IMG/VR virus record: IMGVR_UViG_3300032328_000860
Location: 128,001 to 192,000 of that record
Reading direction: 5' to 3' (one strand)
From: a virus
Lineage: Duplodnaviria > Caudoviricetes
DNA: 64,000 nucleotides
The notes under the pieces are model-generated. The model had not been told where the DNA came from and ran no database searches. It was given only the letters and a program-made list of their open reading frames with translations. This document shows, in pieces, positions 3,202 to 49,455 of the stretch (the stretch's first letter is position 1; each line of letters starts with the position of its first letter). Made by a program: the position numbers and the translations under genes.

Positions 3202-3273
3202 GGCCCCATAGTTAAATGGATATAACAAGTGCCTTCTAAGCACTGGTTAGAGGTTCGATTCCTCTTGGGGCTA
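3202..3273 (+). tRNA. tRNA-Arg(TCT)
   Basis: cloverleaf; AGTGC-CTTCTAA-GCACT; GTTCGA T-loop. Confidence 0.93.
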
Positions 3274-3328
3274 TTATGAATAATCACGCAGAAACGACCG
3301 AACAATTCTTAAAAGCTTGTGAGCTTCT

Positions 3329-3410
3329 CCTAAGTTCTTTACGCATAAAGACTTAGGGCAAAAGCGGCCGGCCCGATTCGACGTAAGTGCTTACCACACA
3401 ACGACTTACG
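3329..3410. repeat. 82-bp paired-dyad element, copy 3
   Basis: CCTAAGT-N15-ACTTAGG / CGTAAGT-N15-ACTTACG; promoter at 3440-3467. Confidence 0.9.
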
Positions 3411-3488
3411 ATTAAATTTTCTCTGCTAAAGTTTCTCTCTTGACTTGTCGATAATATAGTGTAGAATCGGTAGACACAGGAGAAGAAT

Positions 3489-4199
3489 ATGAAAACGGCA
3501 AATGGTAACGATAAGTTGGGTAAGGAAAACTGTATCGTAGTGAGTCGTCCGGTTGGTGATACTTGTCCTCCCGATTGTGATTTTCTCGGTAATGGTTGCT
3601 ATGCCGAGGATTTGGAAAATATCTATCCCGGTGTTCGTCCTGCTGCTATGCAAAATCTTATCACGGAAAAAAACCGTATCCGTGCGATGCTCGTAGATGC
3701 TGTCAAGAAAAATAAAGATGTTCGCTGGCATGAACGTGGCGACTTTTTTAAAGACGGTCAACTCGACAATGAATATGTCGATAATGTATTGTGGGCTTGT
3801 GAGAGTATTCTTGCTAGTGGTGGTAGTCTGCCGACCATGTGGGCTTATACCCATATCTATGATACTCGCTTGTCTACTGAACTTGGCAAGTACATAAATA
3901 TGTATGCTAGTATCCACGATGGCGAAGATATGAAACAAGCCAAGGTCGCTGGTTTCAAGCATTTCGCATGGTGTGATAGTGATACCAAAATCGCACCCAA
4001 GCGTCCGCGTAGCAAGGCCAAGGCCGATGCTTGGCGAGCAGCGTTGCCGAAGCTGGTTGTGTTGGAGGGTGAGAAGTTTATTACTTGTCCAGAAATTCGT
4101 CGTGGTCGCGGTGTCGTGACTTGCACCAAAACCAAAAATAGTGTACATTGTGATTTGTGTCCGCGTGGTTTGGCTAATGTCTTGTTTCCCTCCCACTAA
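3489..4199 (+). CDS. Gp88-like Cys-rich (putative Fe-S) phage protein
   Basis: TCPPDC..GCYA, RWHERGDF and WAYTH motifs; C-terminal CxxC. Confidence 0.55.
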   Translation: MKTANGNDKLGKENCIVVSRPVGDTCPPDCDFLGNGCYAEDLENIYPGVRPAAMQNLITEKNRIRAMLVDAVKKNKDVRWHERGDFFKDGQLDNEYVDNVLWACESILASGGSLPTMWAYTHIYDTRLSTELGKYINMYASIHDGEDMKQAKVAGFKHFAWCDSDTKIAPKRPRSKAKADAWRAALPKLVVLEGEKFITCPEIRRGRGVVTCTKTKNSVHCDLCPRGLANVLFPSH

Positions 4200-4208
4200 G
4201 AGAATATA

Positions 4209-4820
4209 ATGCCTACTAAATATAGCTATGTTGGAAAGTATGCCGATGGTGGAAGCCAAAACTCTTTTTATAAGGTAAGGGGTAAGGGTTATGGATTTAA
4301 AGGTTTTCCGAATAAGAGTTTGGCTACTTTTGCCCATGCGGTACAATCACACCTAGCACCATTGTCTGCCCCCCAGGTTCATAGTCCGGTTTGTAGGATT
4401 AGAGTTCCTAACTATTTTGTTAAGCAGAATAAAAAAGGAGAGATGATTACGGTTACGGAAATGGTATTGAGCGATTGGGGATATTTGACCGAAATCGCTA
4501 AACCATACCGTTGTCCTAGTAGTATTGATTGCTATGGTGATTGTGGTCATTGTACTGATTGTGGTAATTATTATCTTGTACAAGATTTGCTGAGTGATAT
4601 GGAAGATAATGGTATACTTTATACTGATGCCCATACAAAGAATCTGGGCTATGTTACCAGAGATAACGACAAACTATTGGTTGCTATTGATTTTGGTCGA
4701 GAAAGTTTAACTCCGATTAACGAAAAAGACTGGCCCGAAGTTTGTTGGGATGGTGCAGAAGAAGCGTACTGTAACTGTGAAGCTTGCTGTGGACAATATG
4801 AGGAGCCCGAATATGTCTAA
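4209..4820 (+). CDS. minimal protein-kinase-like protein
   Basis: DAHTKN catalytic-loop-like motif, IDFG motif, Gly-rich N-terminal loop. Confidence 0.65.
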   Translation: MPTKYSYVGKYADGGSQNSFYKVRGKGYGFKGFPNKSLATFAHAVQSHLAPLSAPQVHSPVCRIRVPNYFVKQNKKGEMITVTEMVLSDWGYLTEIAKPYRCPSSIDCYGDCGHCTDCGNYYLVQDLLSDMEDNGILYTDAHTKNLGYVTRDNDKLLVAIDFGRESLTPINEKDWPEVCWDGAEEAYCNCEACCGQYEEPEYV

Positions 4821-5053
4821 GTATTATATTAAAAGTAACACACTAGAGTTAATTTATTCTACTAATAAAAGTCCTCTTGAGGCGGCTTGTGATGCTCTGT
4901 GGGAATTGAACGATTTTGACGTATTAGATGAACATTTCTATATTGATGAAAGAGGATTTAAAGATTATTCAACAGCATTACCAGACACTAAAGTAATTAC
5001 CACAGAAAAAGTGATGAAAAAAGCTGGCTGGACTATGGAGAAATAAGATATAG

Positions 5054-5135
5054 CGTAAACCCTTGCTGCACAAAGACTTACGTGCAGCGGGGCCGGCCAA
5101 ATTTGTCGTAAGTTGTTTGGCCGCAAAGACTTAGA
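5054..5135. repeat. 82-bp paired-dyad element, copy 4
   Basis: CGTAAAC-N15-ACTTACG / CGTAAGT-N15-ACTTAGA, 24-bp linker. Confidence 0.88.
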
Positions 5136-5176
5136 ACCGATTAAAGATTTTCAGTCCGAATGTCGATAATTCTTCT

Positions 5177-5557
5177 GTGGGACAGAAAAGACTCTTGACA
5201 CGGAATGAACGTATGATACAATGGATTGGTGTAGCTATAGCTTTAGTGGGTTTCTTGTGGAATGGCATAAAGGACTATCAAAAGGGTGAAATTAAGTTGC
5301 CCTCTTTGCCACAAAAACAAGAGTTGACAAAAGTAATTTATCCGATACAATACTGCTTAATGGCGTATGATCCTAACGTAGATAAAGTTTTCTATAAACA
5401 CGAAGATGGGTTATGGTATGAGTTTCCACCGACACAGCGAAAATATCAAGATCAAGGTCAAGAAGCCGTGGCAATTGTCAACGGGACATCGGCAAGACCG
5501 CAGCGATACTACTATGGACAATCGGCCCAAGCGTCAGCGAACACGCAGCGGTATTGA
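5177..5557 (+). CDS. hypothetical membrane-anchored protein
   Basis: hydrophobic WIGVAIALVGFLW segment; start uncertain. Confidence 0.5.
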   Translation: MGQKRLLTRNERMIQWIGVAIALVGFLWNGIKDYQKGEIKLPSLPQKQELTKVIYPIQYCLMAYDPNVDKVFYKHEDGLWYEFPPTQRKYQDQGQEAVAIVNGTSARPQRYYYGQSAQASANTQRY

Positions 5558-5648
5558 CAAAAGTTGGCGTAAAGAGTATGATATATAGTCGTGTCTACCC
5601 ATGTGGATAGAGCGATCTGGGTTCGTTAGAGATAGCGAACCTTGCAGT

Positions 5649-5721
5649 GCCGGTATAACTCAGTTAGCAGAGTGTCAAATTTGTAATTTGAATGTCGTGG
5701 GTGCAAATCCTACTACCGGCT
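5649..5721 (+). tRNA. tRNA-Thr(TGT)
   Basis: GCCGGTA/TACCGGC acceptor; TCAAA-TTTGTAA-TTTGA. Confidence 0.9.
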
Positions 5722-5774
5722 TTATGAGTCGAAAGAATATGAACAAAGGTAATGGTAGAGAATGTAGAAGATGA

Positions 5775-5846
5775 TCCGGAGTGGTGAAACTGGTATCACA
5801 AAAGGTTTTGGCCCTTTTATTTCTGGATCGTACCCAGACTCCGGAA
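5775..5846 (+). tRNA. tRNA-Gln(TTG)
   Basis: TCCGGAG/CTCCGGA; AAAGG-TTTTGGC-CCTTT. Confidence 0.88.
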
Positions 5847-5851
5847 TTTGA

Positions 5852-5933
5852 TGCTCGGTGGCGAAATTGATAAACGCAGTTGACTGTTAATCAACCGTCG
5901 AAAGACTTGCTGGTTTGAGTCCAGCCCGAGCAG
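5852..5933 (+). tRNA. tRNA-Asn(GTT) with long variable arm
   Basis: TGCTCGG/CCGAGCA; GTTGA-CTGTTAA-TCAAC; variable arm GTC-GAAA-GAC. Confidence 0.88.
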
Positions 5934-5936
5934 CTT

Positions 5937-6023
5937 GGAATGTAGGCAGATATCGGCTCGCTGCACAGCTTTGCTAAAGCTGGCCGGGTAAAACCGGTGA
6001 AAGTTCGACTCTTTCACATTCCG
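5937..6023 (+). tRNA. tRNA-Ser(GCT)
   Basis: GGAATGT/ACATTCC; CAGCT-TTGCTAA-AGCTG; long variable arm. Confidence 0.92.
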
Positions 6024-6028
6024 TTTTT

Positions 6029-6099
6029 ATTGGCGTAGTTCAATAGTAGAATAACTGTCTCCAAAACAGTAGATGGTGGTGCAATTCCACCCGCCTTTG
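6029..6099 (+). tRNA. tRNA-Trp(CCA), imperfect acceptor stem
   Basis: ACTGT-CTCCAAA-ACAGT; acceptor ATTGGCG/CGCCTTT has two U-U mismatches. Confidence 0.8.
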
Positions 6100-6111
6100 C
6101 TTAATAAGTTT

Positions 6112-6182
6112 GCGTGTGTAGTTCAATGGTAGAACCTTTGATTTCCAATCAAATGACGAGAGTTCGATTCTCTCTACACGCT
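6112..6182 (+). tRNA. tRNA-Gly(TCC)
   Basis: GCGTGTG/TACACGC; TTTGA-TTTCCAA-TCAAA. Confidence 0.93.
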
Positions 6183-6243
6183 TCAAAAACTAAAGACTGG
6201 TCTTGACTCTGGACGATAGGTGTATTAGAATAGATCACAATAC

Positions 6244-6318
6244 ACTGCGTGTGCTCGCCGGTAGTGGGCATCAGGCTTATATCCTGAGTAAGAGGGGGTT
6301 CGACTCCCCAACGCAGTA
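6244..6318 (+). tRNA. tRNA-Ile(TAT), atypical
   Basis: ACTGCGT/ACGCAGT; TCAGG-CTTATAT-CCTGA; TTCGACT T-loop. Confidence 0.8.
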
Positions 6319-6406
6319 TTTTTATGTGACGGAGGCTGACGTTAGAGTTACGAATACCAGTTGTGTTGCGAGGTGTCTGGGCTTAAATTAAAACATCTCG
6401 CTTTAT

Positions 6407-6478
6407 GGCCCCATAGTATAATAGTTAGTATACCGGGCTTTCATCCCGGAGATCTGGGAGCATAACCCAGTGGGGTCA
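6407..6478 (+). tRNA. tRNA-Glu(TTC)
   Basis: GGCCCCA/TGGGGTC; CCGGG-CTTTCAT-CCCGG. Confidence 0.88.
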
Positions 6479-7030
6479 TTTTTTACTCTCTGTATATTCT
6501 ATTACCTCTCTGCATAGTTGAATATATTCATCATAAGTTAATTCTGTTTTAGAAAGATTAGCTATTCTGCAAGCTATTTGACAATTATCTAAACTATTAT
6601 CCCCTCCTTTAGATTTGGGTATGATATGATCTAAATGATATGATTTTGAATCATTCAAATCTATATTTCTTCCTGTTAAATAGCATTTAGGATTTGTACC
6701 TATTTTCTCTAAGAGATCTTTTGGCTTAAACATAGGTTTACCAACTCCGAACTTTCTAATTTTAGATGATAGTTTTTGTTCTATAGTTTTAATTTTAAAA
6801 GAATATTTATTATTGTCATTTTTTTTAGTTGAATAAAATTTATATATTTTGTTATTTAAGATGTGAGAATCTTTATAGGATTTATTTCTTGTTAATGTCT
6901 TAATTTTTTGATTAGCACCACAATAATAAGAAACAGTGCCTTTAGAACAATTAAGTTTAGAAGCTATATAGCTGTATGTATGGTTTTGACTTCTTAAGAA
7001 GAAGATTTTATCAGCTAATTTATCTTTCAT
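6476..7030 (-). CDS. HNH homing endonuclease
   Basis: N-terminal HTH; LDHIIPKSKGGDNSLDNCQIACRIANLSK. Confidence 0.9.
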   Translation of the reverse strand: MKDKLADKIFFLRSQNHTYSYIASKLNCSKGTVSYYCGANQKIKTLTRNKSYKDSHILNNKIYKFYSTKKNDNNKYSFKIKTIEQKLSSKIRKFGVGKPMFKPKDLLEKIGTNPKCYLTGRNIDLNDSKSYHLDHIIPKSKGGDNSLDNCQIACRIANLSKTELTYDEYIQLCREVIEYTESKK

Positions 7031-7323
7031 AGTTCAAATCCTTAATTATTAATACACCAAAAGTTTCGGATTCGCTCAAGTTTTTTCTTGACAAAGCCGA
7101 TTCTAGTGTTAGAATGACAACCATCACCACTACCAACTAGGAAAAAATCATGAAAAATGTTCATATTTATGATATTTTGAATAGTGAAGGTCAAACTCTT
7201 GCTGATCTTATTATTCCTATGGATAGTTCTGATTTTACTTACCTTGAAGTTTTTGATAAGGTTCAAAATGCCTATTTGAATGATGTTGATAGTTATAGCT
7301 ATAGCGTGATTGAATAAATAGTT

Positions 7324-7396
7324 GGGCCTCTAGCTCAATTGGCAGAGCAAGGAGCTTTTAACTCTTAGGTTCGGGGTTCGAGTCCCCGGGGGCCCA
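7324..7396 (+). tRNA. tRNA-Lys(TTT)
   Basis: canonical cloverleaf; AGGAG-CTTTTAA-CTCTT. Confidence 0.95.
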
Positions 7397-7417
7397 CTTA
7401 ATAGATTTGGTACATTT

Positions 7418-7918
7418 ATGAAATCGTTAAATGAAATGGAAATTGAAGAAGTTCGCAATACCGATGGCGGAATCATTCAAGGAGCTAGCCATACTTGTCA
7501 TGTATTGAATCATAAGATCAGAAATAAGATTATAATTAAGGCTGTATGTGATCTTCGAAAGATTAGTAAAGACTTTGATAGTATTGTTTGTTGTGGCGTA
7601 AGCGGTTTGATGGTTGTGCCGCAAATTGCTGAGATTATTAACAAAAATATTTTGGTGGTACGCAAAGATGAAAGAAGATATAGCAATTTTACAACTGAGG
7701 GGGTTGCTCCTTTTAGGTACGTGATTATTGACGATCTTATTTGCTCTGGAAATACTATAAAGCATATTACTTCCACACTTAAAGAAGAATATCCTAGATC
7801 TAGATGTATAGGTATTTACTGTTATCTTCCACAAGAAACAGTATTCAAACCAGATACGGAAGGATCTAAAATCTGTGAAAAGAGATTTGGGTCGCCGCTC
7901 CTAAACCTAGACCACTAA
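7418..7918 (+). CDS. type I phosphoribosyltransferase-family protein
   Basis: PRPP-binding loop YVIIDDLICSGNT. Confidence 0.85.
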   Translation: MKSLNEMEIEEVRNTDGGIIQGASHTCHVLNHKIRNKIIIKAVCDLRKISKDFDSIVCCGVSGLMVVPQIAEIINKNILVVRKDERRYSNFTTEGVAPFRYVIIDDLICSGNTIKHITSTLKEEYPRSRCIGIYCYLPQETVFKPDTEGSKICEKRFGSPLLNLDH

Positions 7919-7981
7919 AGGACTTAGGACGAAGGCGGGCGGCCCGGTTTGACGTAAGTGCTTTGCTCTCAACAACTTACG
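7900..7981. repeat. 82-bp paired-dyad element, copy 5
   Basis: CCTAAAC-N15-ACTTAGG / CGTAAGT-N15-ACTTACG; promoter 8012-8039. Confidence 0.9.
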
Positions 7982-8082
7982 ACACAAGAAATTTTTTCGC
8001 AAGTTTAGCTGTTGACAGGCCGATAATCTATGATAGAATCAGCGTATCAGAGTGAGAAACAGATAACACGAAAGGGTCGATT

Positions 8083-9030
8083 ATGCCTGCTATGGTTGAA
8101 AAGATGATGTTTGTTGGTGCTACCCCCTGGCATGGTGAGGGTACGCAGTTGGATGAGAATCCGTCCATCAGCGATGCTATTGTTGCCGCTGGTCTGGATT
8201 GGGAAGTTGGTACTAAGCCGTTGTTTACTGCGGAAGGTACTCCGGTTAATGCCAAGGCTACCTATCGTAAGGATGATAATCGCGTGTTGGGTGTTGTGGG
8301 GCCACGTTATACCCCGCTCCAGAATCAGGATGCGTTCGATTGGTTTCAGCCGTTCCTCGACGCTAGCGAGTGCCAACTGCACACTGCCGGTTCGCTCAGT
8401 GAGGGCGAAAAGGTTTGGGTGTTGGCTCAACTCAACCGTGCGAACAGCGAAATTGTTCGTGGCGACGAGGTGAGTAAGTTTATTCTGCTGTCGAATAGTC
8501 ACGATGGTACAACGTCGATCCGCGTCGGATATACTCCGATTCGGGTGGTCTGCGTCAATACTCTCGCGGCTGCTCATAATAGTAAGGATAGTCAGCTTAT
8601 CCGTATTCGTCATACTCGTTCCAGTAAAGTTAATCTGGAAAACGTGCGTGATATTATGGACAATATTAATGTGCAGTTTGAAGCGACTGCGGAACAGTAT
8701 CGGTTCCTCGCGTCGAAAGACTTTAATCAGAACGATATTCAGAAGTATGTTAAGGTTATGCTTGGAATTGATAAGACCCCGGAAGAGGATATCAAGACTC
8801 GCACCAGAAATATCATGGACGAGATTCTTGCACTGGTCGAAGGCCCGCACCAGAGTGCTGCCGGAGTTCGTGGAACTTGGTGGGCCGCTTATAACGGCTA
8901 CAATGAGTACCTTAATTACAATAAGGGTCGAACGGTGAGCAACCGCCTTGACTCTCTGTGGTTCGGTCAGAATGGTGCTGATAATCTTAAGGCTCTTAAT
9001 ACTGCCGTGGATTTTGCGAACGCTGTCTGA
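8083..9030 (+). CDS. DUF932-family (phage/plasmid-like) protein
   Basis: PWHGEG, AGLDWEV, YTPLQN, NSHDG, PIRVVCxNT, GTWWAAYN motifs. Confidence 0.9.
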   Translation: MPAMVEKMMFVGATPWHGEGTQLDENPSISDAIVAAGLDWEVGTKPLFTAEGTPVNAKATYRKDDNRVLGVVGPRYTPLQNQDAFDWFQPFLDASECQLHTAGSLSEGEKVWVLAQLNRANSEIVRGDEVSKFILLSNSHDGTTSIRVGYTPIRVVCVNTLAAAHNSKDSQLIRIRHTRSSKVNLENVRDIMDNINVQFEATAEQYRFLASKDFNQNDIQKYVKVMLGIDKTPEEDIKTRTRNIMDEILALVEGPHQSAAGVRGTWWAAYNGYNEYLNYNKGRTVSNRLDSLWFGQNGADNLKALNTAVDFANAV

Positions 9031-9052
9031 TCTTTTCTTGTCACGATGAAAA

Positions 9053-9094
9053 GGGGAAGCCGCCGTAGGGGAAACTCTGCGGCGGTTCTCTTTT
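9053..9094 (+). terminator. intrinsic terminator
   Basis: GCCGCCGTAGGG-GAAA-CTCTGCGGCGGT followed by T-run. Confidence 0.8.
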
Positions 9095-9111
9095 ATCAAA
9101 ACGGGAATTGA

Positions 9112-9193
9112 CGTAAGTAGTTGCCGCATAAGGACTTACGACAAAACGGGCCGGCCAAATTAGTCGTAACTTTAAGTGCCATAAGGGTTTACG
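9112..9193. repeat. 82-bp paired-dyad element, copy 6 (single extra dyad at 9248-9276)
   Basis: CGTAAGT-N15-ACTTACG / CGTAACT-N15-GTTTACG. Confidence 0.88.
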
Positions 9194-9298
9194 TCAAGTT
9201 TCCTATAGACAAAGCGGCCAAACGACGATATACTATGGAGAGGTGGTCGTAAGTGCATGGGAGGTAAGAGTTTAGATAAAAATAGTAATAAATCAATT

Positions 9299-9345
9299 TT
9301 GTCTCTGCTAATCCTGCGGATTTGCTGACGTTGCTGATAGTCAGC
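9299..9345 (+). repeat. 47-bp asymmetric motif, copy 2
   Basis: TTGTCT-CTG-CTAAT-CCTGC-GGATTTG..TG..TAGTCAGC. Confidence 0.85.
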
Positions 9346-10445
9346 CAGCTTTTGGGGGTATATTATATTTATAGGAGATACAAACTATGAATATATTAAA
9401 GCCACCAGCGAATTTCTGTTACTATCTAATAGTTTACTTATGGATACAGATTTTATTATGGTACGGATTTTAATTATGCAGAAAAGAAAAATGAACGATA
9501 TTCTTAGATCGCTTAATTATACCTTGGATTGTTCTAATCAAAGACTCAAATGGTATATGGATACTAATAATGAGAGGTATCTTACTGATTGTGAGATGTA
9601 TTTGAGAGTTGCTAATATTTATATGGCGGAAATTAATAAGGAAAGAAAGCATGAAGATTGTTGTAATATTTGATTTTCCTGAGATTCAGGGTATTGAGGA
9701 TGGGAACCGTGCTATTGATACTCTTAAAAATGATCTAACAATTATGTCTAATACTACTTTATATCAGTGGTATATAGAAAAGGTACTTAGTGATAATAAA
9801 TTCTTAAGTACTGAACCAATTAATCTGTCTGTTAGTTGATATAAATCCTTTATAGTCAAGGGGTTGTGACTAGCCTATCAATACATGTGGTGACATATGA
9901 GGATTGGTCTGTAATACCCTTCATTTACGGTCTGCCGGGCACTATTAAAACTCTTTGTGATCATGGCTATGTGGTCTAAATGGGTTAAAGTAAAAACGTT
10001 TTGAAGACTGATAAGATATTGCAATAGTAATTTGAGGGACATTTACTCAAACTATTATAAAAATTCTCAATAAGCAAAGTACATAGAAATGATATTTGGG
10101 TAAGATTAGATCCAATTAATTATGGCTATTATTCTTCTTTGAACCTGGGTGAAATATTAATTCGTCCCCTAAAAGATTTGCTAAGAAAAATTTAACCATT
10201 GATGCTGCAACTTTGTAGTCAGCTCCTATAGCTTCATTGTATCTAAAAAAACCAACAAGTCAAGGGTTTATGATTATGAAAAATTTCATAAACGTAGAGA
10301 TAGGAATAGCCCTCATCGGAGATGATGAAGAGCCTGTGGTTGATAAGAAGTAATATATATATTATATCCTCACCCGCTGCATAATATATAATGTCTATCT
10401 GGTTGGTTGTCAAGTAGTAAACTTTTTGTAATTACAAGGTAATGA

Positions 10446-10474
10446 CGTAAGCTGTTGATTCTCAAGCACTTGCG
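10446..10474. promoter_or_regulatory. single 29-bp dyad between divergent promoters
   Basis: CGTAAGC-N15-ACTTGCG; contains IHF-like AATCAA-N4-TTA on - strand. Confidence 0.65.
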
Positions 10475-10765
10475 TCAAGTGGGTCTGTGTGGTACAATGA
10501 CTGTGTAGTGGTTAGTCTCACCTTTGGAGTTTTTTATGCTTGGTATTTGTTTGTGCTGTGGTATTTGTGTTGGAATTTTTAACGGATATATGCAAGTCAC
10601 TTACAATTAGGATAGTAATACAAACATCTATTTAACGTGTTTCTGATTCTAACTCAACTACTTTAAGATTCATTATCTAAAGATAAACCAATAATAGTAT
10701 ATAAATACATAAAACACGAACCAATGCTCGTTAATTGTATTTGCTAATAAATAGTAAATAACAAT

Positions 10766-10816
10766 AAGCCCTCTGGCGCCTCTTTACAATGCGTACTTCC
10801 AGAGGGTTTTTTATTT
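10766..10816 (+). terminator. probable terminator
   Basis: AAGCCCTCTGG...CCAGAGGGTTT followed by T-run. Confidence 0.6.
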
Positions 10817-10853
10817 AATAATTATAGGTAGTCTTCCATTATAAGAGACCCAT

Positions 10854-10900
10854 TTGTATTATCTAATATATCGGGTTTGGTGGTAATGGTGATAGTCAGC
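10854..10900 (+). repeat. 47-bp asymmetric motif, copy 3
   Basis: TTGTAT-TAT-CTAAT-ATATC-GGGTTTG..TG..TAGTCAGC. Confidence 0.85.
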
Positions 10901-11074
10901 CAATAATAGGGATCAAGGTAAAAGTTTTATTATGATGTCTATTGCTTTTCAATTCTTCTATTGTAGAATGAACTAGTCAACGAAGCCAATAGTCAAGCAG
11001 ATCGGTAAAACGAATGTGGGGCAGTTGGAATCATGGGCAAAAGTATTTTTAACTTTAAACCATGAGGTGTTCTG

Positions 11075-11374
11075 ATGAAAACTAGATATATTAATGATAA
11101 TAATCGTCAAGATGTTCAAAGAAAATATATTGACCAGATCTTGGGCGAAATGGATTTTATGCAGATTAAGGATGGGCTTAGAAATTATCTAAATCAAGAG
11201 AAAGATAAATCTGGCAATTACTCTTTGGAATCTGAAATTAGAAAAGAGGCTCCTGAAGTTTTAGTAGACAATTGGGAAGACTTTAACCAACCAGCTACTT
11301 TAACAAAAAAGAAAAACAGTTATGGTTCTGAAATAGACTATCCTTCGACACAGGAGGAACTATTCCATGCCTAA
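11075..11374 (+). CDS. hypothetical protein (paralog of 11423..11671)
   Basis: shared INxxNxxxxxxxYxDxILxxMD...EK..Y.N..LE.EI...P.VL pattern. Confidence 0.7.
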   Translation: MKTRYINDNNRQDVQRKYIDQILGEMDFMQIKDGLRNYLNQEKDKSGNYSLESEIRKEAPEVLVDNWEDFNQPATLTKKKNSYGSEIDYPSTQEELFHA

Positions 11375-11422
11375 AGACTTTAACTGCGGTAATGGTAAAC
11401 TCATAAAAAAAGAGGTGCTACT

Positions 11423-11671
11423 ATGAAACATTTTAAGATTAATAGCGAAAATAAAGAATATATAGTTAAGAGATATACTGACTATATATTGTCTCGCATG
11501 GACAACTTAGAAGTATGGGAAGGCTTCAAGGAATATTTCTATAAGGAAAAATTAGCATATCCTAATGAAACTTTGGAGCAAGAAATTAATAGATACTGTC
11601 CTTCAGTACTAGAAGATCATATTGCTGAAGATATAGTAGGGAAAGGGCGAGAATATGCCAAGACTATTTAA
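11423..11671 (+). CDS. hypothetical protein (paralog of 11075..11374)
   Basis: tandem paralog; GAGG RBS. Confidence 0.7.
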   Translation: MKHFKINSENKEYIVKRYTDYILSRMDNLEVWEGFKEYFYKEKLAYPNETLEQEINRYCPSVLEDHIAEDIVGKGREYAKTI

Positions 11672-11943
11672 TAGAATTATAAGTTTTAGAGTAGAGGGTG
11701 AAATTTATGATAACACCACTACTGCAGAACAGATCATAAAGAGTTATGATTGGTCATTTAAACATGACGGGGGTAATTCTATATTCTGTTCTGCTTCCTA
11801 TGATGATAATCGTGGTCGTATAACTAACATGACTAGATTAAATAAAATTCAGAAGTGTAAAAAATCTGACACTGAATATTTTATTGTATAGTTTATCTAC
11901 TTATTAAGATAAGATAAGTTGAGCGGCATAAAAACCCTTCAAC

Positions 11944-11990
11944 TTGTCTTACCTTATATTAACGGTTTGATTTTTTTGATAGTAGTCAGC
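11944..11990 (+). repeat. 47-bp asymmetric motif, copy 4
   Basis: TTGTCT-TAC-CTTAT-ATTAA-CGGTTTG..TG..TAGTCAGC. Confidence 0.8.
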
Positions 11991-12031
11991 TAAAATATTA
12001 TATTAATAGTCTGGCATAATATTGGGTCCTA

Positions 12032-12078
12032 TAGTCTCACCTAATATTCTAGATTTGGTTTTAGTGGTAATAGTCAGT
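12032..12078 (+). repeat. 47-bp asymmetric motif, copy 5
   Basis: TAGTCT-CAC-CTAAT-ATTCT-AGATTTG..TG..TAGTCAGT. Confidence 0.8.
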
Positions 12079-12193
12079 CAAAACTAAATGATCGAATTAA
12101 CAAATTGATTCTTGACCCTATGTACCTCAGGCTTATCATAGACAACCTAACCGTCGCATGGACGCGACATACTTTCCAACAGGAGATATTTTT

Positions 12194-12409
12194 ATGAAGA
12201 AGTTTGCACTTGTGGTAGCCCTAATGGCAATTGGTTCGTCATCATTTGCTGGTGAATGTGTTAGTGGTAATTGTACTCTGCGTAGTCGATTTGTCAATGT
12301 TACTAAGGAAGTAATTTCAGTACCAGTAACAGTAACACGCCGAACAGTTGAAGCTACTCGCAATATTGGTCGCAAAAGTGTGGCCCGCGTTCGTAGCGTT
12401 GTTCGTTGA
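12194..12409 (+). CDS. small secreted protein (signal peptide, CxxGxC, Arg/Val-rich)
   Basis: MKKFALVVALMAIGSSSFA-GECVSGNC; AGGAG RBS. Confidence 0.75.
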   Translation: MKKFALVVALMAIGSSSFAGECVSGNCTLRSRFVNVTKEVISVPVTVTRRTVEATRNIGRKSVARVRSVVR

Positions 12410-12537
12410 ACAATATTATGATTGATAATCTGAAGAGTTAGTATAATTTATCAGATTATAAATTACCAGAGAATTCCCCCAAATAAACTTGGGGGTCTTT
12501 TCTTAAATACATTTATTATTTACTCAAGGAGGAATTT

Positions 12538-12882
12538 ATGAAAAATTTTATGATTGCATTAGTACTTATTTTTGGCACTAGTTTTACCGCAGAGGCGGCT
12601 CGACCAAACTATTATAGTCAGCCAACTAATAGGACATATTCATATACTAGTGCTCAACATCTAGGTAGTGATCAAGATCGTTGCCAGGCCGAAGCAAATT
12701 ATATGGCAGCTAATAATATCTCTGGTCATGTATGGGGAACCATTGGAAATTTTGAAGGCGTGGGATATGGTGGTAGTCCAAATTGTAACACTTGTACTCC
12801 AAGAAGTCAAATGAATTTAACAGGAGATGCGTCAGCACAAGGTAGGAATGGTATGTGGTACAGAGTAAGGAGTTGGAGGTAA
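12538..12882 (+). CDS. secreted Cys-containing protein, Planctomycete-style
   Basis: Sec signal ending AEA; FEGVG..C..GDA.AQGRNGMWYRVRSWR. Confidence 0.7.
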   Translation: MKNFMIALVLIFGTSFTAEAARPNYYSQPTNRTYSYTSAQHLGSDQDRCQAEANYMAANNISGHVWGTIGNFEGVGYGGSPNCNTCTPRSQMNLTGDASAQGRNGMWYRVRSWR

Positions 12883-12972
12883 ATGACGGAAAGTTTAATT
12901 ATTACTATAGTAGTATGGGATCTTATACTGTTAAGCGGAATCATATTATATCTCATCAAAATTAATAATTAG

Positions 12973-13045
12973 GCAAGAGTAGCTCAATTGGCAGAGCGTC
13001 AGGTTTCCAACCTGAATGTTGAGGGTTCGATTCCCTTCTCTTGCT
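12973..13045 (+). tRNA. tRNA-Gly(TCC), second copy
   Basis: GCAAGAG/CTCTTGC; TCAGG-TTTCCAA-CCTGA. Confidence 0.94.
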
Positions 13046-13060
13046 TTTAATAGACGTATT

Positions 13061-26648: not shown

Positions 26649-28800
26649 AGTTTGAAGAATTTCTAAAAAAAGTAGACGATACATTCTTGAATCATCAAGC
26701 AGCAAGATCAAGAGGTAAAATAAAAACTGAAAATCAGTGGAGATATGGTCAAACAATAATGAATGTTTTGTGGGAAGTTTGGCCGGATAAACATACAGAG
26801 ATTAAAGGTAGCGATATTGATTGTTTTTATGACAACTCTAATGTACAATTTACTCTTGATAAATTAGAGAAGGAATGGATAGTATGAAAAAGAAAAAGAA
26901 AATAACTAAAGCTAAACGTAAGCAAAAGATTGATGTTGTAATAGAATCATTAGTTCATCTTGAACAAAGGGTTAAGGAACTAATTGAAGAAGTTAACCAA
27001 CTAAAAAATAAAAATCATCACTATTATCCTCCTTACCAACCGCCAAAAGATGATAATAAGTATTGGCCCAATATCGAGCCACCTTTTTGGTACAAATACA
27101 TAAGTCAATATTCATATAACACCTAAACACAGAAAGCCCAAATGCTGTCAAATTGCGGTTGACAAGCACTCAGGCTTCTGGTATAATGAATTGTGCGATT
27201 TTTCAGAAATGTCCGCAATACATTTCTATATTAGAATACACCAAATCTTGATTATCAAACAATGAAAGCCTTTAAAGAAAAGTTAGTAAAAGTTGTCGAG
27301 AATGTCTATTGCGACTGCTGTGGCAAAAGCACCACAAACTATCTTTATGTTGGGCCAGATTATGCAACACTAGAGAGTTGTTGGGGATATGGGTCAAAGA
27401 ATGATGGTACAAAATACAGTATAGAACTTTGTGAAACTTGTTTCTTTGAGGTTCTAAACTTTATTAAGGACAAACGAAGGAAAGTTTTGGCCCCATTTAA
27501 TTATCCTTATAACAAAGACCCTTTAGAGGGAATTGAATACCTGTGAAATGAATTAACGAACTATGTATTTTATAATGGGCATCAACATCAAATAAGAAGG
27601 AACAAAGAATGAACAAAGATTTTGAATCTGCTATTGTTTGGTACTCTCTATTAATACTAATTGTTGCGATATTAGTAATAGTATCTCCTATTGTTACAAT
27701 ATGGAGTTTAAATACTTTGTTTCACACTTCAATAGAATACTCTATATGGACATATTTGGCAGGATTATGGTTAACGGGATTAATTGCTGGCAGTAACGGA
27801 ATTAAATCAAGATGATAACAAATGCTTTAGTTTTCTTTAATGTATTATTAGGTCTAATAAGTTTCATGCCATGTCTTATGGCGGGCGGCATGAGTATGGA
27901 TAGTCCTCAAGCACAACATAGTATAATAGCGCATTTAGTAATGTATATTTTTCTCAGTTTTTCATTGGTTTGCTGGATATGTGCGGGATTATCCTATTAT
28001 TTTAAGTCGTTGGCATTAGGATTGTTTCCTATATGCCAAGCGGTTTTAATTATCACAACACTATGGATACTATCCAAATGAATAATCTAACTAAAGAACA
28101 AAAGTTTATTATACTCTGGCTTTACAATAGAGTTGCCAGAAGTATGTCGTCTAATCCTATAAAGGGTGGAGGCGATGATATTATTGTTGATGGAATTAAT
28201 GTAACAGAAACAGTTAGGGATTTATTAAAGGAGAAATTATTTGTATGAATAATTTTATAGAGTATGTAAAAAATCTTAGATCTTCTTTATTAAAACAAGA
28301 AGAAAGTGAAAGACAAACAGGAAGATCAACCAGAATTATAAATCAAGCAAAACACCAAAAATCAACTGTCGTATGTTTTAACTATAGACAAAAAAAAGAA
28401 TTTGAACATTTGGGGGTTGAGACTATAACTCTAGAACAATACAACAAAGAAAAACAAGGATCATCAAAAACTTATTTATTTGATCACCTTACTATGTACC
28501 ATATAATAGATAAGCACTATTCTCAACTGGTTGAAGAATACGGAAACTAAAAGATAAAATATAAGTTTGTTACGTTGATGGAATTAATGTAACCGAAGTG
28601 GTTAAAGAACTATTACAAGACAGGTTATTTGTATGAAACTAACTAATCAAGATTTAGATATTCTAAGAGAACTAGTAGAAGACAAACTTAAAGAAATAGA
28701 TAACGGGCCAGAAGGTGTTGAAATCTATGATAGGCCGGAAGTATATATAAATATTATTAAGAAGCTGGATAGAATGTACTTTAACTAAGGAGAAAATAAA

Positions 28801-29398
28801 GTGAGTATGATATACTTTACATCAGACACTCACTTTGGTTAGCCTGCGGGCTAACTAAGGTCATAATAACATAATCAAATATTGTAATCGTCCATTTAAA
28901 GATGTTCACGAAATGAACAAAACTATTCTTGACAATATAAATGAAGTTGTCGGATATGATGATACTCTGTACATACTTGGAGATTTCTGTTTTAGAGGCA
29001 AAAAGCCGCTTACATATAGGCTTCGTATAAATTGTAGAGATGTTCACTTATTATTAGGTAATCACGACAAAAGAAAAGATTTTTATATAGATGAGAATAC
29101 TGTAGATATGCAGGGATTTAGTTCAGTACAAGAAGTTAAAGAAATAATACATTGTAATCAGAAGATATTTATGTCACACTATTGCCATAAAGTATGGGCA
29201 TCAAGTCATAAAGGCAGTATTCATTTATACGCTCATTCACATTCTAAGTTTGATACAGAAGATAGGACTTCTGATAGGAAAGTATTAGATGTTGGTGTTG
29301 ATAATTGCATTAATTACGGTAAACCTTTCGGTCAACCGTGGAGTTTCAAGGAACTACAAAAATTATTTAATCAGAAAATGAGGATGTTAAATGACTGA
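28801..29398 (+). CDS. metallophosphoesterase interrupted by a 22-nt non-coding gap (28840-28861); candidate translational bypass
   Basis: RBS AAGGAG; GTG..IYFTSDTHFG then TAG; resumes HNNIIKYCNRPF in frame with ORF 28913..29398 (LGDF, GNHD, SHY, HSH, DVGVD). Confidence 0.85.
28834..28861 (+). promoter_or_regulatory. putative ribosome-hopping signal: take-off GGT, TAG, hairpin, landing GGT
   Basis: TTTGGTTAGCC-TGCG-GGCTAACTAAG stem with cUNCGg loop; matched GGT codons at 28837 and 28859. Confidence 0.7.
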
Positions 29399-49299: not shown

Positions 49300-49383
49300 G
49301 GCCTCTTGGCGTAATCGGCAGCCGCAACGGACTTAAAATCCGTTGGGAGAAATCCCGTGTGGGTTCAAGTCCCACAGAGGCCA
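49300..49383 (+). tRNA. tRNA-Leu(TAA)
   Basis: GGCCTCT/AGAGGCC; ACGGA-CTTAAAA-TCCGT; long variable arm. Confidence 0.94.
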
Positions 49384-49455
49384 CTGTAGTATAAAAAGCA
49401 GAGAATAAATTTTCTTGGTGTATTCTAAATTAGACTACACATAAGGAGATTTATA

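Follow-up and report, generated by a model that had tools for sequence, protein, structure and literature searches.

A candidate compact ribosome-hop cassette in a phage metallophosphoesterase gene, with similar gaps in a glycosyltransferase gene and in bacterial yyaL

The closest described relative of the element reported here is the translational bypass of phage T4 gene 60. In the T4 take-off complex, as resolved by cryo-EM, the tip of the take-off structure is folded into a 12-nt hairpin that sits in the ribosomal A site and there hinders release factor 1 (RF1) and readthrough (PMC5462505). All gene 60 homologues surveyed lie in Topo2L together with a MobA element; CC-UUCG-GG and the stop codon are conserved among them, and the Aeromonas clade has a gap of 20 nt (Manning & Atkins, bioRxiv 10.1101/2022.08.31.505936). 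In the terminase of the Streptomyces phage Hau3, bypass takes place at a rare UUA codon, and the junction peptide was found by mass spectrometry in E. coli (PMC10732093). Natural bypassing in the literature that we searched is confined to the T4 gene 60 family, one Streptomyces phage terminase and yeast mitochondria. The mitochondrial 'byp' elements of Magnusiomyces, which Lang et al. are said to have described in 2014, are reportedly mobile inserts of tens of nucleotides in the coding sequence of many genes, with matched take-off and landing codons, an undecodable codon in the A site and a hairpin.

The DNA analysed here (the window, 64,000 nt) comprises bases 128001-192000 of a 223,437-bp IMG/VR virus record from an uncultured phage. 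A reading of the window from its letters only (the sequence-only reading) had proposed a ribosome hop over 22 nt in a metallophosphoesterase gene, and its AAGGAG, GTG at 28801, GGT-TAG at 28837-42 and second GGT at 28859-61 all lie where it had placed them. The features of the locus are as follows.

28787-28792, + strand: Shine-Dalgarno sequence AAGGAG, 8 nt before the GTG at 28801 (from the sequence)
28801 and 28807, + strand: start codons GTG and, in frame with it, ATG (from the sequence)
28801-28839, + strand: upstream coding piece MSMIYFTSDTHFG, with metal-binding motif I (DxH) (from the sequence and a codon table of 15 copies)
28832-28861, + strand: take-off hairpin with a 13-bp stem and a c(UGCG)g tetraloop at 28845-28848 (from the fold and a comparison of pairing)
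28837-28839, + strand: take-off codon GGT (Gly), which is GGT in 15 of 15 insert-bearing copies
28840-28861, + strand: 22-nt coding gap, with TAG, the hairpin tip, two TAA and the landing GGT (from the sequence and the comparison of 15 copies)
28840-28842, + strand: stop codon TAG directly 3' of the take-off GGT (from the sequence; TAG in all copies)
28852-28854, + strand: TAA in the original frame (from the sequence)
28856-28858, + strand: TAA in the landing frame, directly 5' of the landing GGT (from the sequence)
28859-28861, + strand: landing codon GGT, the 3' foot of the stem (from the sequence; kept in all 15 copies)
28862-29398, + strand: downstream coding piece HNNIIKYCNRPF..., with motifs GDF, GNHD, SHY and HSH, TGA at 29396-29398 and a match to PHROG 547

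Read along the window, the order is ATG, the codons for IYFTSDTHF, GGT, TAG, CC-TGCG-GG, CTAAC, TAA, GGT and CAT AAT AAC, after which the frame is open to the TGA at 29396-98. The frame used after the gap is shifted by +1 with respect to the one before it. As had been claimed, the landing GGT is in frame with the ORF that ends at 29398, and the TAA said to lie just before it is found at 28856-58.

The take-off and landing codons are both located inside the hairpin at 28832-28861, which has a folding energy of -19.4 kcal/mol (z -6.2) and is matched by none of 200 shuffled sequences. The sequence-only reading had correctly described a stem closed by a UNCG loop, but its estimate of about 11 bp was too short: 28832-44 pair with 28849-61 over 13 bp. 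No other C(UNCG)G hairpin in the 223-kb genome has a stem of at least 8 bp. The element is also the sole match of a generic genome-wide scan for a codon, a stop, a hairpin, the same codon and a long ORF, which found no second hop element in the genome; it is thus beyond chance. A terminator reading of the hairpin was rejected, since there is no T run 3' of the stem. The insert is not an assembly artefact, because two further samples of the same study yielded independently assembled contigs that cross it with zero indels and with 12 and 7 substitutions in the region.

The tip of the hairpin corresponds to that of T4. The T4 gene 60 record reads GAT GGA TAG CC TTCG GG CTA TC T, and the cassette TTT GGT TAG CC T[T/G]CG GG CTA AC T. 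The 14-nt tip TAGCC-TTCG-GGCTA is the same in both (the window's loop being TGCG), and the one stem pair that differs is compensatory. The likeness to T4 gene 60 proposed earlier is thereby borne out in its matched Gly codons, its adjacent UAG and a hairpin tip equal to that of the T4 take-off hairpin. The best explanation for the locus, and in our judgement a likely one, is a programmed translational bypass (ribosome hop) in a compact form resembling that of T4 gene 60; it is favoured because 15 diverged relatives keep the insert while the gene stays under selection.

In the proposed mechanism, initiation would occur at GTG 28801 or ATG 28807, and 13 or 11 codons would be read up to GGU 28837-39, as the sequence and its conservation indicate. 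By analogy with T4, peptidyl-tRNA(Gly) would then stand in the P site with UAG in the A site, and the tip UAGCC-UGCG-GGCUA would fold in the A site, keeping out RF1 and near-cognate tRNAs. Still following T4, codon-anticodon pairing would be lost, the ribosome would slide over 22 nt while holding the peptidyl-tRNA, and the anticodon would find its first cognate GGU at 28859-61, 5 nt past the tip hairpin, and re-pair there. Decoding would resume at CAU 28862 and yield one metallophosphoesterase of about 190 aa, a step for which the sequence and its conservation again speak. The window holds twelve tRNA genes (in 3202-13046 and 49300-49384), including two for tRNA-Gly(UCC); tRNA-Gly(GCC) is absent among the twelve, and a host tRNA therefore presumably reads GGU at both take-off and landing.

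The stretch translated before take-off is only 11-13 codons long. A nascent-peptide signal of the T4 type therefore cannot exist in the phosphoesterase cassette, and this counts against bypass: T4 requires its signal for high efficiency, and short peptidyl-tRNAs are prone to drop-off. No mini-Shine-Dalgarno sequence of the GAG, GGG or AGG type is present 5-7 nt before the landing codon, where the 7 nt read CTAACTA plus A; the nearest GGG (28849-51) lies about 7-8 nt upstream of the landing codon, inside the stem. The conserved lower stem pairs the landing codon with the bases just 5' of the take-off codon. It cannot be folded while the take-off codon occupies the P site, and the T4 model leaves its conserved pairing unexplained.

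Relatives were collected by protein- and pattern-based scans of IMG/VR and metagenome contigs. They form one clade, at 63-83% protein identity, of 15 distinct insert-bearing genes and, as the sequence-only reading had envisaged, close homologues without the insert (12 distinct genes). The insert measures 22 nt and sits at the same codon in all 15 insert-bearing genes. Three of the 22 gap positions vary across these copies: 28846 (the second loop base, G or T) and, in the 3' arm, 28855 (in loci L136 and L148) and 28856 (in L136). The loop is TGCG or TTCG, one G-C pair has become G-U in L148, and an adjacent G-C and G-U pair are swapped in L136. Every variant keeps 13 of 13 stem pairs, with two compensatory and three one-sided changes; compensatory change in the stem is what the sequence-only reading had suggested testing for. 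The pair swap in L136 (L136:1474-1503) also turns the landing-frame TAA into CAA and leaves the +1 frame open through the gap, in that relative only; since the landing-frame stop is lost there, a +1 shift product is possible in L136.

Almost no variation is seen in the insert or in the synonymous sites pairing with it, while the surrounding synonymous sites are near saturation. Opposite the landing GGT in the stem, the His codon reads CAC in each of the 15 interrupted copies, whereas all 12 uninterrupted genes have CAT. The 15 interrupted copies all use TTT for Phe and GGT for Gly, and CAC-TTT-GGT is fixed only in insert-bearing copies; the Gly codon of the uninterrupted relatives is GGA (7), GGG (2) or GGT (3). 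The insert-bearing copies may share ancestry, in which case these codon associations are not independent events. Two G-U pairs are part of the stem and are possible on the sense strand only. Because such pairs form solely on that strand, the comparison points to RNA, not DNA, as the selected structure.

Selection on the protein is similar with and without the insert. The uncorrected pN/pS is 0.31 in interrupted pairs and 0.29 in uninterrupted pairs, at a pS of 0.64-0.70, near saturation. All ORFs are intact, with 178-191 aa, and further stops or indels occur in no copy. Among the 15 copies, the upstream piece shows the synonymous changes TAT/TAC, TTT/TTC, GAT/GAC and Ser TCT/TCA/AGT, including a switch between the TCN and AGY serine codons (TCT/AGT), plus T/I and T/N. 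The first 18 codons past the landing codon precede any start codon and have a pN of 0.11 against a pS of 0.56; the His directly after the landing codon is invariant. Since the N-terminal changes are synonymous and the 18 pre-start codons evolve as coding sequence, the codon patterns indicate that both pieces are translated, each in its own frame, and that the protein matters.

These results bear on the idea that a selfish hairpin insert has inactivated the gene and left a decaying pseudogene or a tolerated loss. Standard gene callers do see a 13-aa ORF and a truncated ORF without the DxH motif, which fits such a loss. However, both pieces are intact in fifteen diverged copies free of added stops or indels, and the insert itself is conserved. 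Neutral decay of the flanks, raised earlier as an observation that would speak against a hop, is not what we see: both halves are under purifying selection, for which the sequence-only reading had suggested testing, and pN/pS equals that of the uninterrupted relatives at near-saturated synonymous divergence. We regard inactivation as very improbable.

The start region also distinguishes the two groups of genes. The conserved start in relatives is ATG; the GTG put forward by the earlier reading is present but is not a general start, as it is in frame only in the window's subgroup (GTG AGT ATG). All 15 insert-bearing copies keep an AAGGAG or AAGGAA leader, most uninterrupted genes have a different sequence there, and the leader as a whole (Shine-Dalgarno sequence, GTG and ATG) is common to the interrupted copies and missing from most uninterrupted ones. 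Because the leader is conserved in the interrupted copies as well, the inherited or exchanged unit may be about 75-80 nt long, leader included. In most insert-bearing copies (e.g. L003:575-585), the Shine-Dalgarno sequence is spaced for a GTG that opens a mini-ORF of three codons, GTG ATA TCA TGA, whose stop overlaps the true ATG start (ATGA). This overlap suggests that the phosphoesterase ATG is reached by termination-reinitiation.

Termination-reinitiation is common in phages, and the mini-ORF overlapping the ATG in most relatives suggests coupling at this locus. One could thus imagine that the downstream part is made alone, by internal initiation or by reinitiation after the TAG, and works without the first 11-13 residues. 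Yet there is no ATG, GTG or TTG between 28859 and 28913, and the codons from 28862 onwards, beginning with the invariant His after the landing codon, are conserved as protein. Such a product would lack two metal ligands, and the N-terminal piece is itself under selection at the protein level. Independent production of the downstream part is accordingly a highly unlikely account of the locus.

A single joined chain would give a conventional enzyme. The downstream piece matches the PHROG 547 phosphoesterase (E 1e-35) from profile position 40, and the match of an uninterrupted full-length homologue (L002) begins at position 30. At the cut-off of 21.5 bits for Pfam Metallophos, L002 passes with 23.4 bits, whereas the window's downstream piece alone stays below it with 19.0. 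The joined reading holds all five motifs, DxH, GD, GNH(D/E), H and GHxH, of a calcineurin-like metallophosphoesterase (PF00149 / PHROG 547) in one chain, and the predicted joined product, of about 190 aa, has a complete DxH motif. By sequence, the nearest solved structure is Aquifex aq_1665 (PDB 1XM7), with the N-terminus MMYFISDTHFYHENII. Because 1XM7 begins in this manner, the predicted junction MIYFTSDTHFG-HNNII is a normal N-terminus for the phosphoesterase family. Relatives in cultured phages have at most 40% identity. The sole nucleotide-level match of the region in the phage collection is a stretch of 78 nt (window 28868-28945) with 81-82% identity to Prevotella Lak megaphages.

Lak megaphages recode TAG. 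A code of this kind, stop readthrough or frameshifting might be thought to join the two frames, given the 78-nt Lak-like stretch, the +1 relation of the landing frame and the +1 frame open in L136. The stops in the gap speak against all three: the TAA at 28856-58 blocks the +1 frame of the window and of all other copies but one (13 of 14), and the original frame, were TAG decoded as an amino acid, would still end at the TAA at 28852-54. Lak-like recoding, considered for the 78-nt match, was rejected for the latter reason and because the frames differ. Moreover, TAG ends 24 of the 103 window ORFs of at least 100 aa, and a second copy of the cassette, in a GT9 gene described below, has two in-frame stops. 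With a stop in each of the three frames and a gap length not divisible by 3, readthrough and frameshifting fail, except possibly in L136; the sequence-only reading had argued likewise for simple readthrough over 22 nt. Joining of the frames by any of these routes is the least probable of the alternatives.

The one indication of the enzyme's role is an RNA ligase gene located 1.6-2.6 kb upstream in some relatives, which hints that the enzyme is a nucleic-acid end-healing phosphoesterase. The same ligase gene could be invoked for a different reading: excision of the 22 nt from the RNA, as a micro-intron or by an endonuclease plus a ligase, followed by normal translation of the mature mRNA. A precise loss of 22 nt would restore the frame, and the GGT repeats leave the cut site ambiguous. 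To our knowledge, however, no bacterial or phage splicing system removes 20-40 nt. The perfect 13-bp stem has no bulge-helix-bulge geometry, the cuts needed would fall asymmetrically in the stem, and the hairpin matches no Rfam family. Removal from the RNA also fails to explain the constant stop after the take-off codon and a tip equal to the A-site hairpin of T4. We consider it unlikely, and retain ribosome hopping as the preferred reading.

The same cassette is found in an unrelated gene. On the IMG/VR contig 3300009537_000353 (L050:10189-10260, the same locus as L216), a gene for a GT9 glycosyltransferase is split after codon 15. It reads FRSGAFG, then GGT TAG CC TTCG GG CTAAC TA GGC, then DNIILTP; the gap is 21 nt, the take-off codon GGT, the landing codon GGC, and a TAG and a TAA are in frame. 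The GT9 and phosphoesterase cassettes share 24 identical nucleotides, and the two lowest stem pairs are changed in a compensatory way. Five GT9 homologues are uninterrupted. With a gap of 21 nt instead of 22 nt, the GT9 gene would represent frame-independent reuse of the cassette.

Other matches of the broad pattern scan were rejected, being mostly an intergenic hairpin repeat, gene ends with TAG plus a terminator, or a hairpin read as normal coding sequence (L110, L128). The intergenic hairpin, GGG-TAG-CC-TTCG-GG-CTA-CCC, recurs in many IMG/VR contigs (L014-L103) within a conserved stretch of ~30 nt in a non-coding context and is probably a terminator or an RNA-stability element.

The sequence-only reading had also proposed that the insert may be mobile. 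In favour of this, the same 24 nt occur in the unrelated GT9 gene, and the insert is patchy on the gene tree: its well-supported branches require two or more gains or losses, and the best tree five. Built from a protein of 180 aa, the tree has too little resolution to tell a single gain followed by losses from repeated gains. On the other side, neither a mobility mechanism nor a homing endonuclease was found, the latter in Pfam and PHROGs scans of 27 neighbouring ORFs from the window and relatives. In L115 (1091-1990) and L136 only, the insert-bearing gene is directly preceded by an ORF of 300 aa (PHROG 23051), which contains a CPVCH motif and in which no nuclease domain is recognisable. The cassette could be a leftover, a shield against a homing endonuclease, or a means of setting expression.

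Arrangements of a codon, a stop, a UNCG hairpin and the same codon, for which the sequence-only reading had suggested searching related genomes, extend from the 24 nt of the GT9 gene to gaps in a bacterial chromosomal gene. The yyaL gene, which encodes a DUF255 thioredoxin-domain protein, is split exactly at the boundary of GYS and TCHWC in a number of bacterial genomes (loci L131/L222, L229, L223, L242, L253, L265, L267 and L294-L323); the split carries the same tip in P. peoriae, P. kribbensis, two other Paenibacillus and Neobacillus mesonae. Carriers include the named cultured strains P. peoriae KCTC 3763, P. kribbensis 6hRe76 and Neobacillus mesonae MER 107. In the order to which Paenibacillus sp. 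Marseille-Q4541 belongs, a pattern search of 401 genomes located a gap of 18-43 nt that starts with TAG at this boundary in 38 of them and an uninterrupted site in 112, with no control matches. The 29 distinct gaps cover all three lengths modulo 3, and many contain the T4-like hairpin TAG-CC-TTCG-GG. In 18 of the 29, the resume codon is preceded by a triplet whose first two bases are those of the serine take-off codon. The take-off and landing codons co-vary (AGY with AGA, TCN with TCN), being AGT/AGA in one and TCC/TCT in the other of two genes that are 77% identical. Both halves of yyaL are intact, with a pN/pS of about 0.1 in close pairs. From these patterns, yyaL looks like a widespread chromosomal bypass site.

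A full-text search of the literature gave no report of bypass in a phosphoesterase, a GT9 gene or yyaL. The recurrence of a stop codon with a CC-UUCG-GG A-site hairpin in T4 gene 60, in the jumbo-phage phosphoesterase and GT9 genes and in about a quarter of the yyaL genes of that Paenibacillus order raises the proposal of a portable minimal bypass module, which would act without a long nascent-peptide signal and would have spread or arisen repeatedly; we find this proposal evenly balanced. If it is true, ribosome hopping would be a recurrent decoding mode of bacterial ribosomes beyond T4, chromosomal genes included. The cassette keeps the A-site hairpin of T4 and drops the 46-residue nascent-peptide signal, the mini-Shine-Dalgarno sequence and 28 nt of the gap, and for this reason it would be a natural minimal construct for the requirements of take-off and landing. 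The fifteen natural variants, the GT9 host gene and the co-varying yyaL gaps provide a ready-made mutational series. As gene callers split or discard bypass genes, annotation pipelines would miss functional enzymes.

Compared with the described systems, the cassette resembles the Magnusiomyces 'byp' elements in being a short insert within a gene, with matched codons and a hairpin. It differs from them in its sequence family, in that they act on mitochondrial ribosomes, and in number, with many per genome in Magnusiomyces and one per phage genome here. The short bypass of phage Hau3 likewise lies outside topoisomerase genes, in a terminase. Its take-off, however, is triggered by a hungry UUA codon, with neither a UAG nor a UNCG-type (UUCG/UGCG) hairpin, and its sequence, host group and gene are unrelated to those of the cassette.

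The differences from T4 gene 60 lie in size, signals and context. The T4 gap is 50 nt and that of the cassette 22 nt, with the landing codon at the foot of the take-off hairpin. Gene 60 encodes an N-terminal extension of about 46 aa that carries a nascent-peptide signal, whereas the cassette has 11-13 codons and no such signal; T4 also has a GAG mini-Shine-Dalgarno sequence at -6 and an AU-rich 3' part, both absent from the cassette. The T4 host gene is a topoisomerase (Topo2L) with a MobA element. In contrast, the cassette resides in a metallophosphoesterase of PHROG 547, no topoisomerase context was found around it, and its neighbours include no MobA or other recognisable homing endonuclease by Pfam and PHROGs.

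The likenesses concern the core of the element. As in T4 gene 60, take-off and landing codons are matched Gly codons (GGT/GGT in 15 of 15 phosphoesterase copies and GGT/GGC, read by the same tRNA, in the GT9 cassette), UAG follows take-off immediately in all copies, the take-off stem-loop holds the take-off codon and the stop (with a UGCG or UUCG loop in the cassette), and the other frames are closed by stops. The short gap has its counterpart in the 20 nt of the Aeromonas clade of gene 60. From this shared architecture, the cassette would work like gene 60, but outside the MobA/Topo2L element family.
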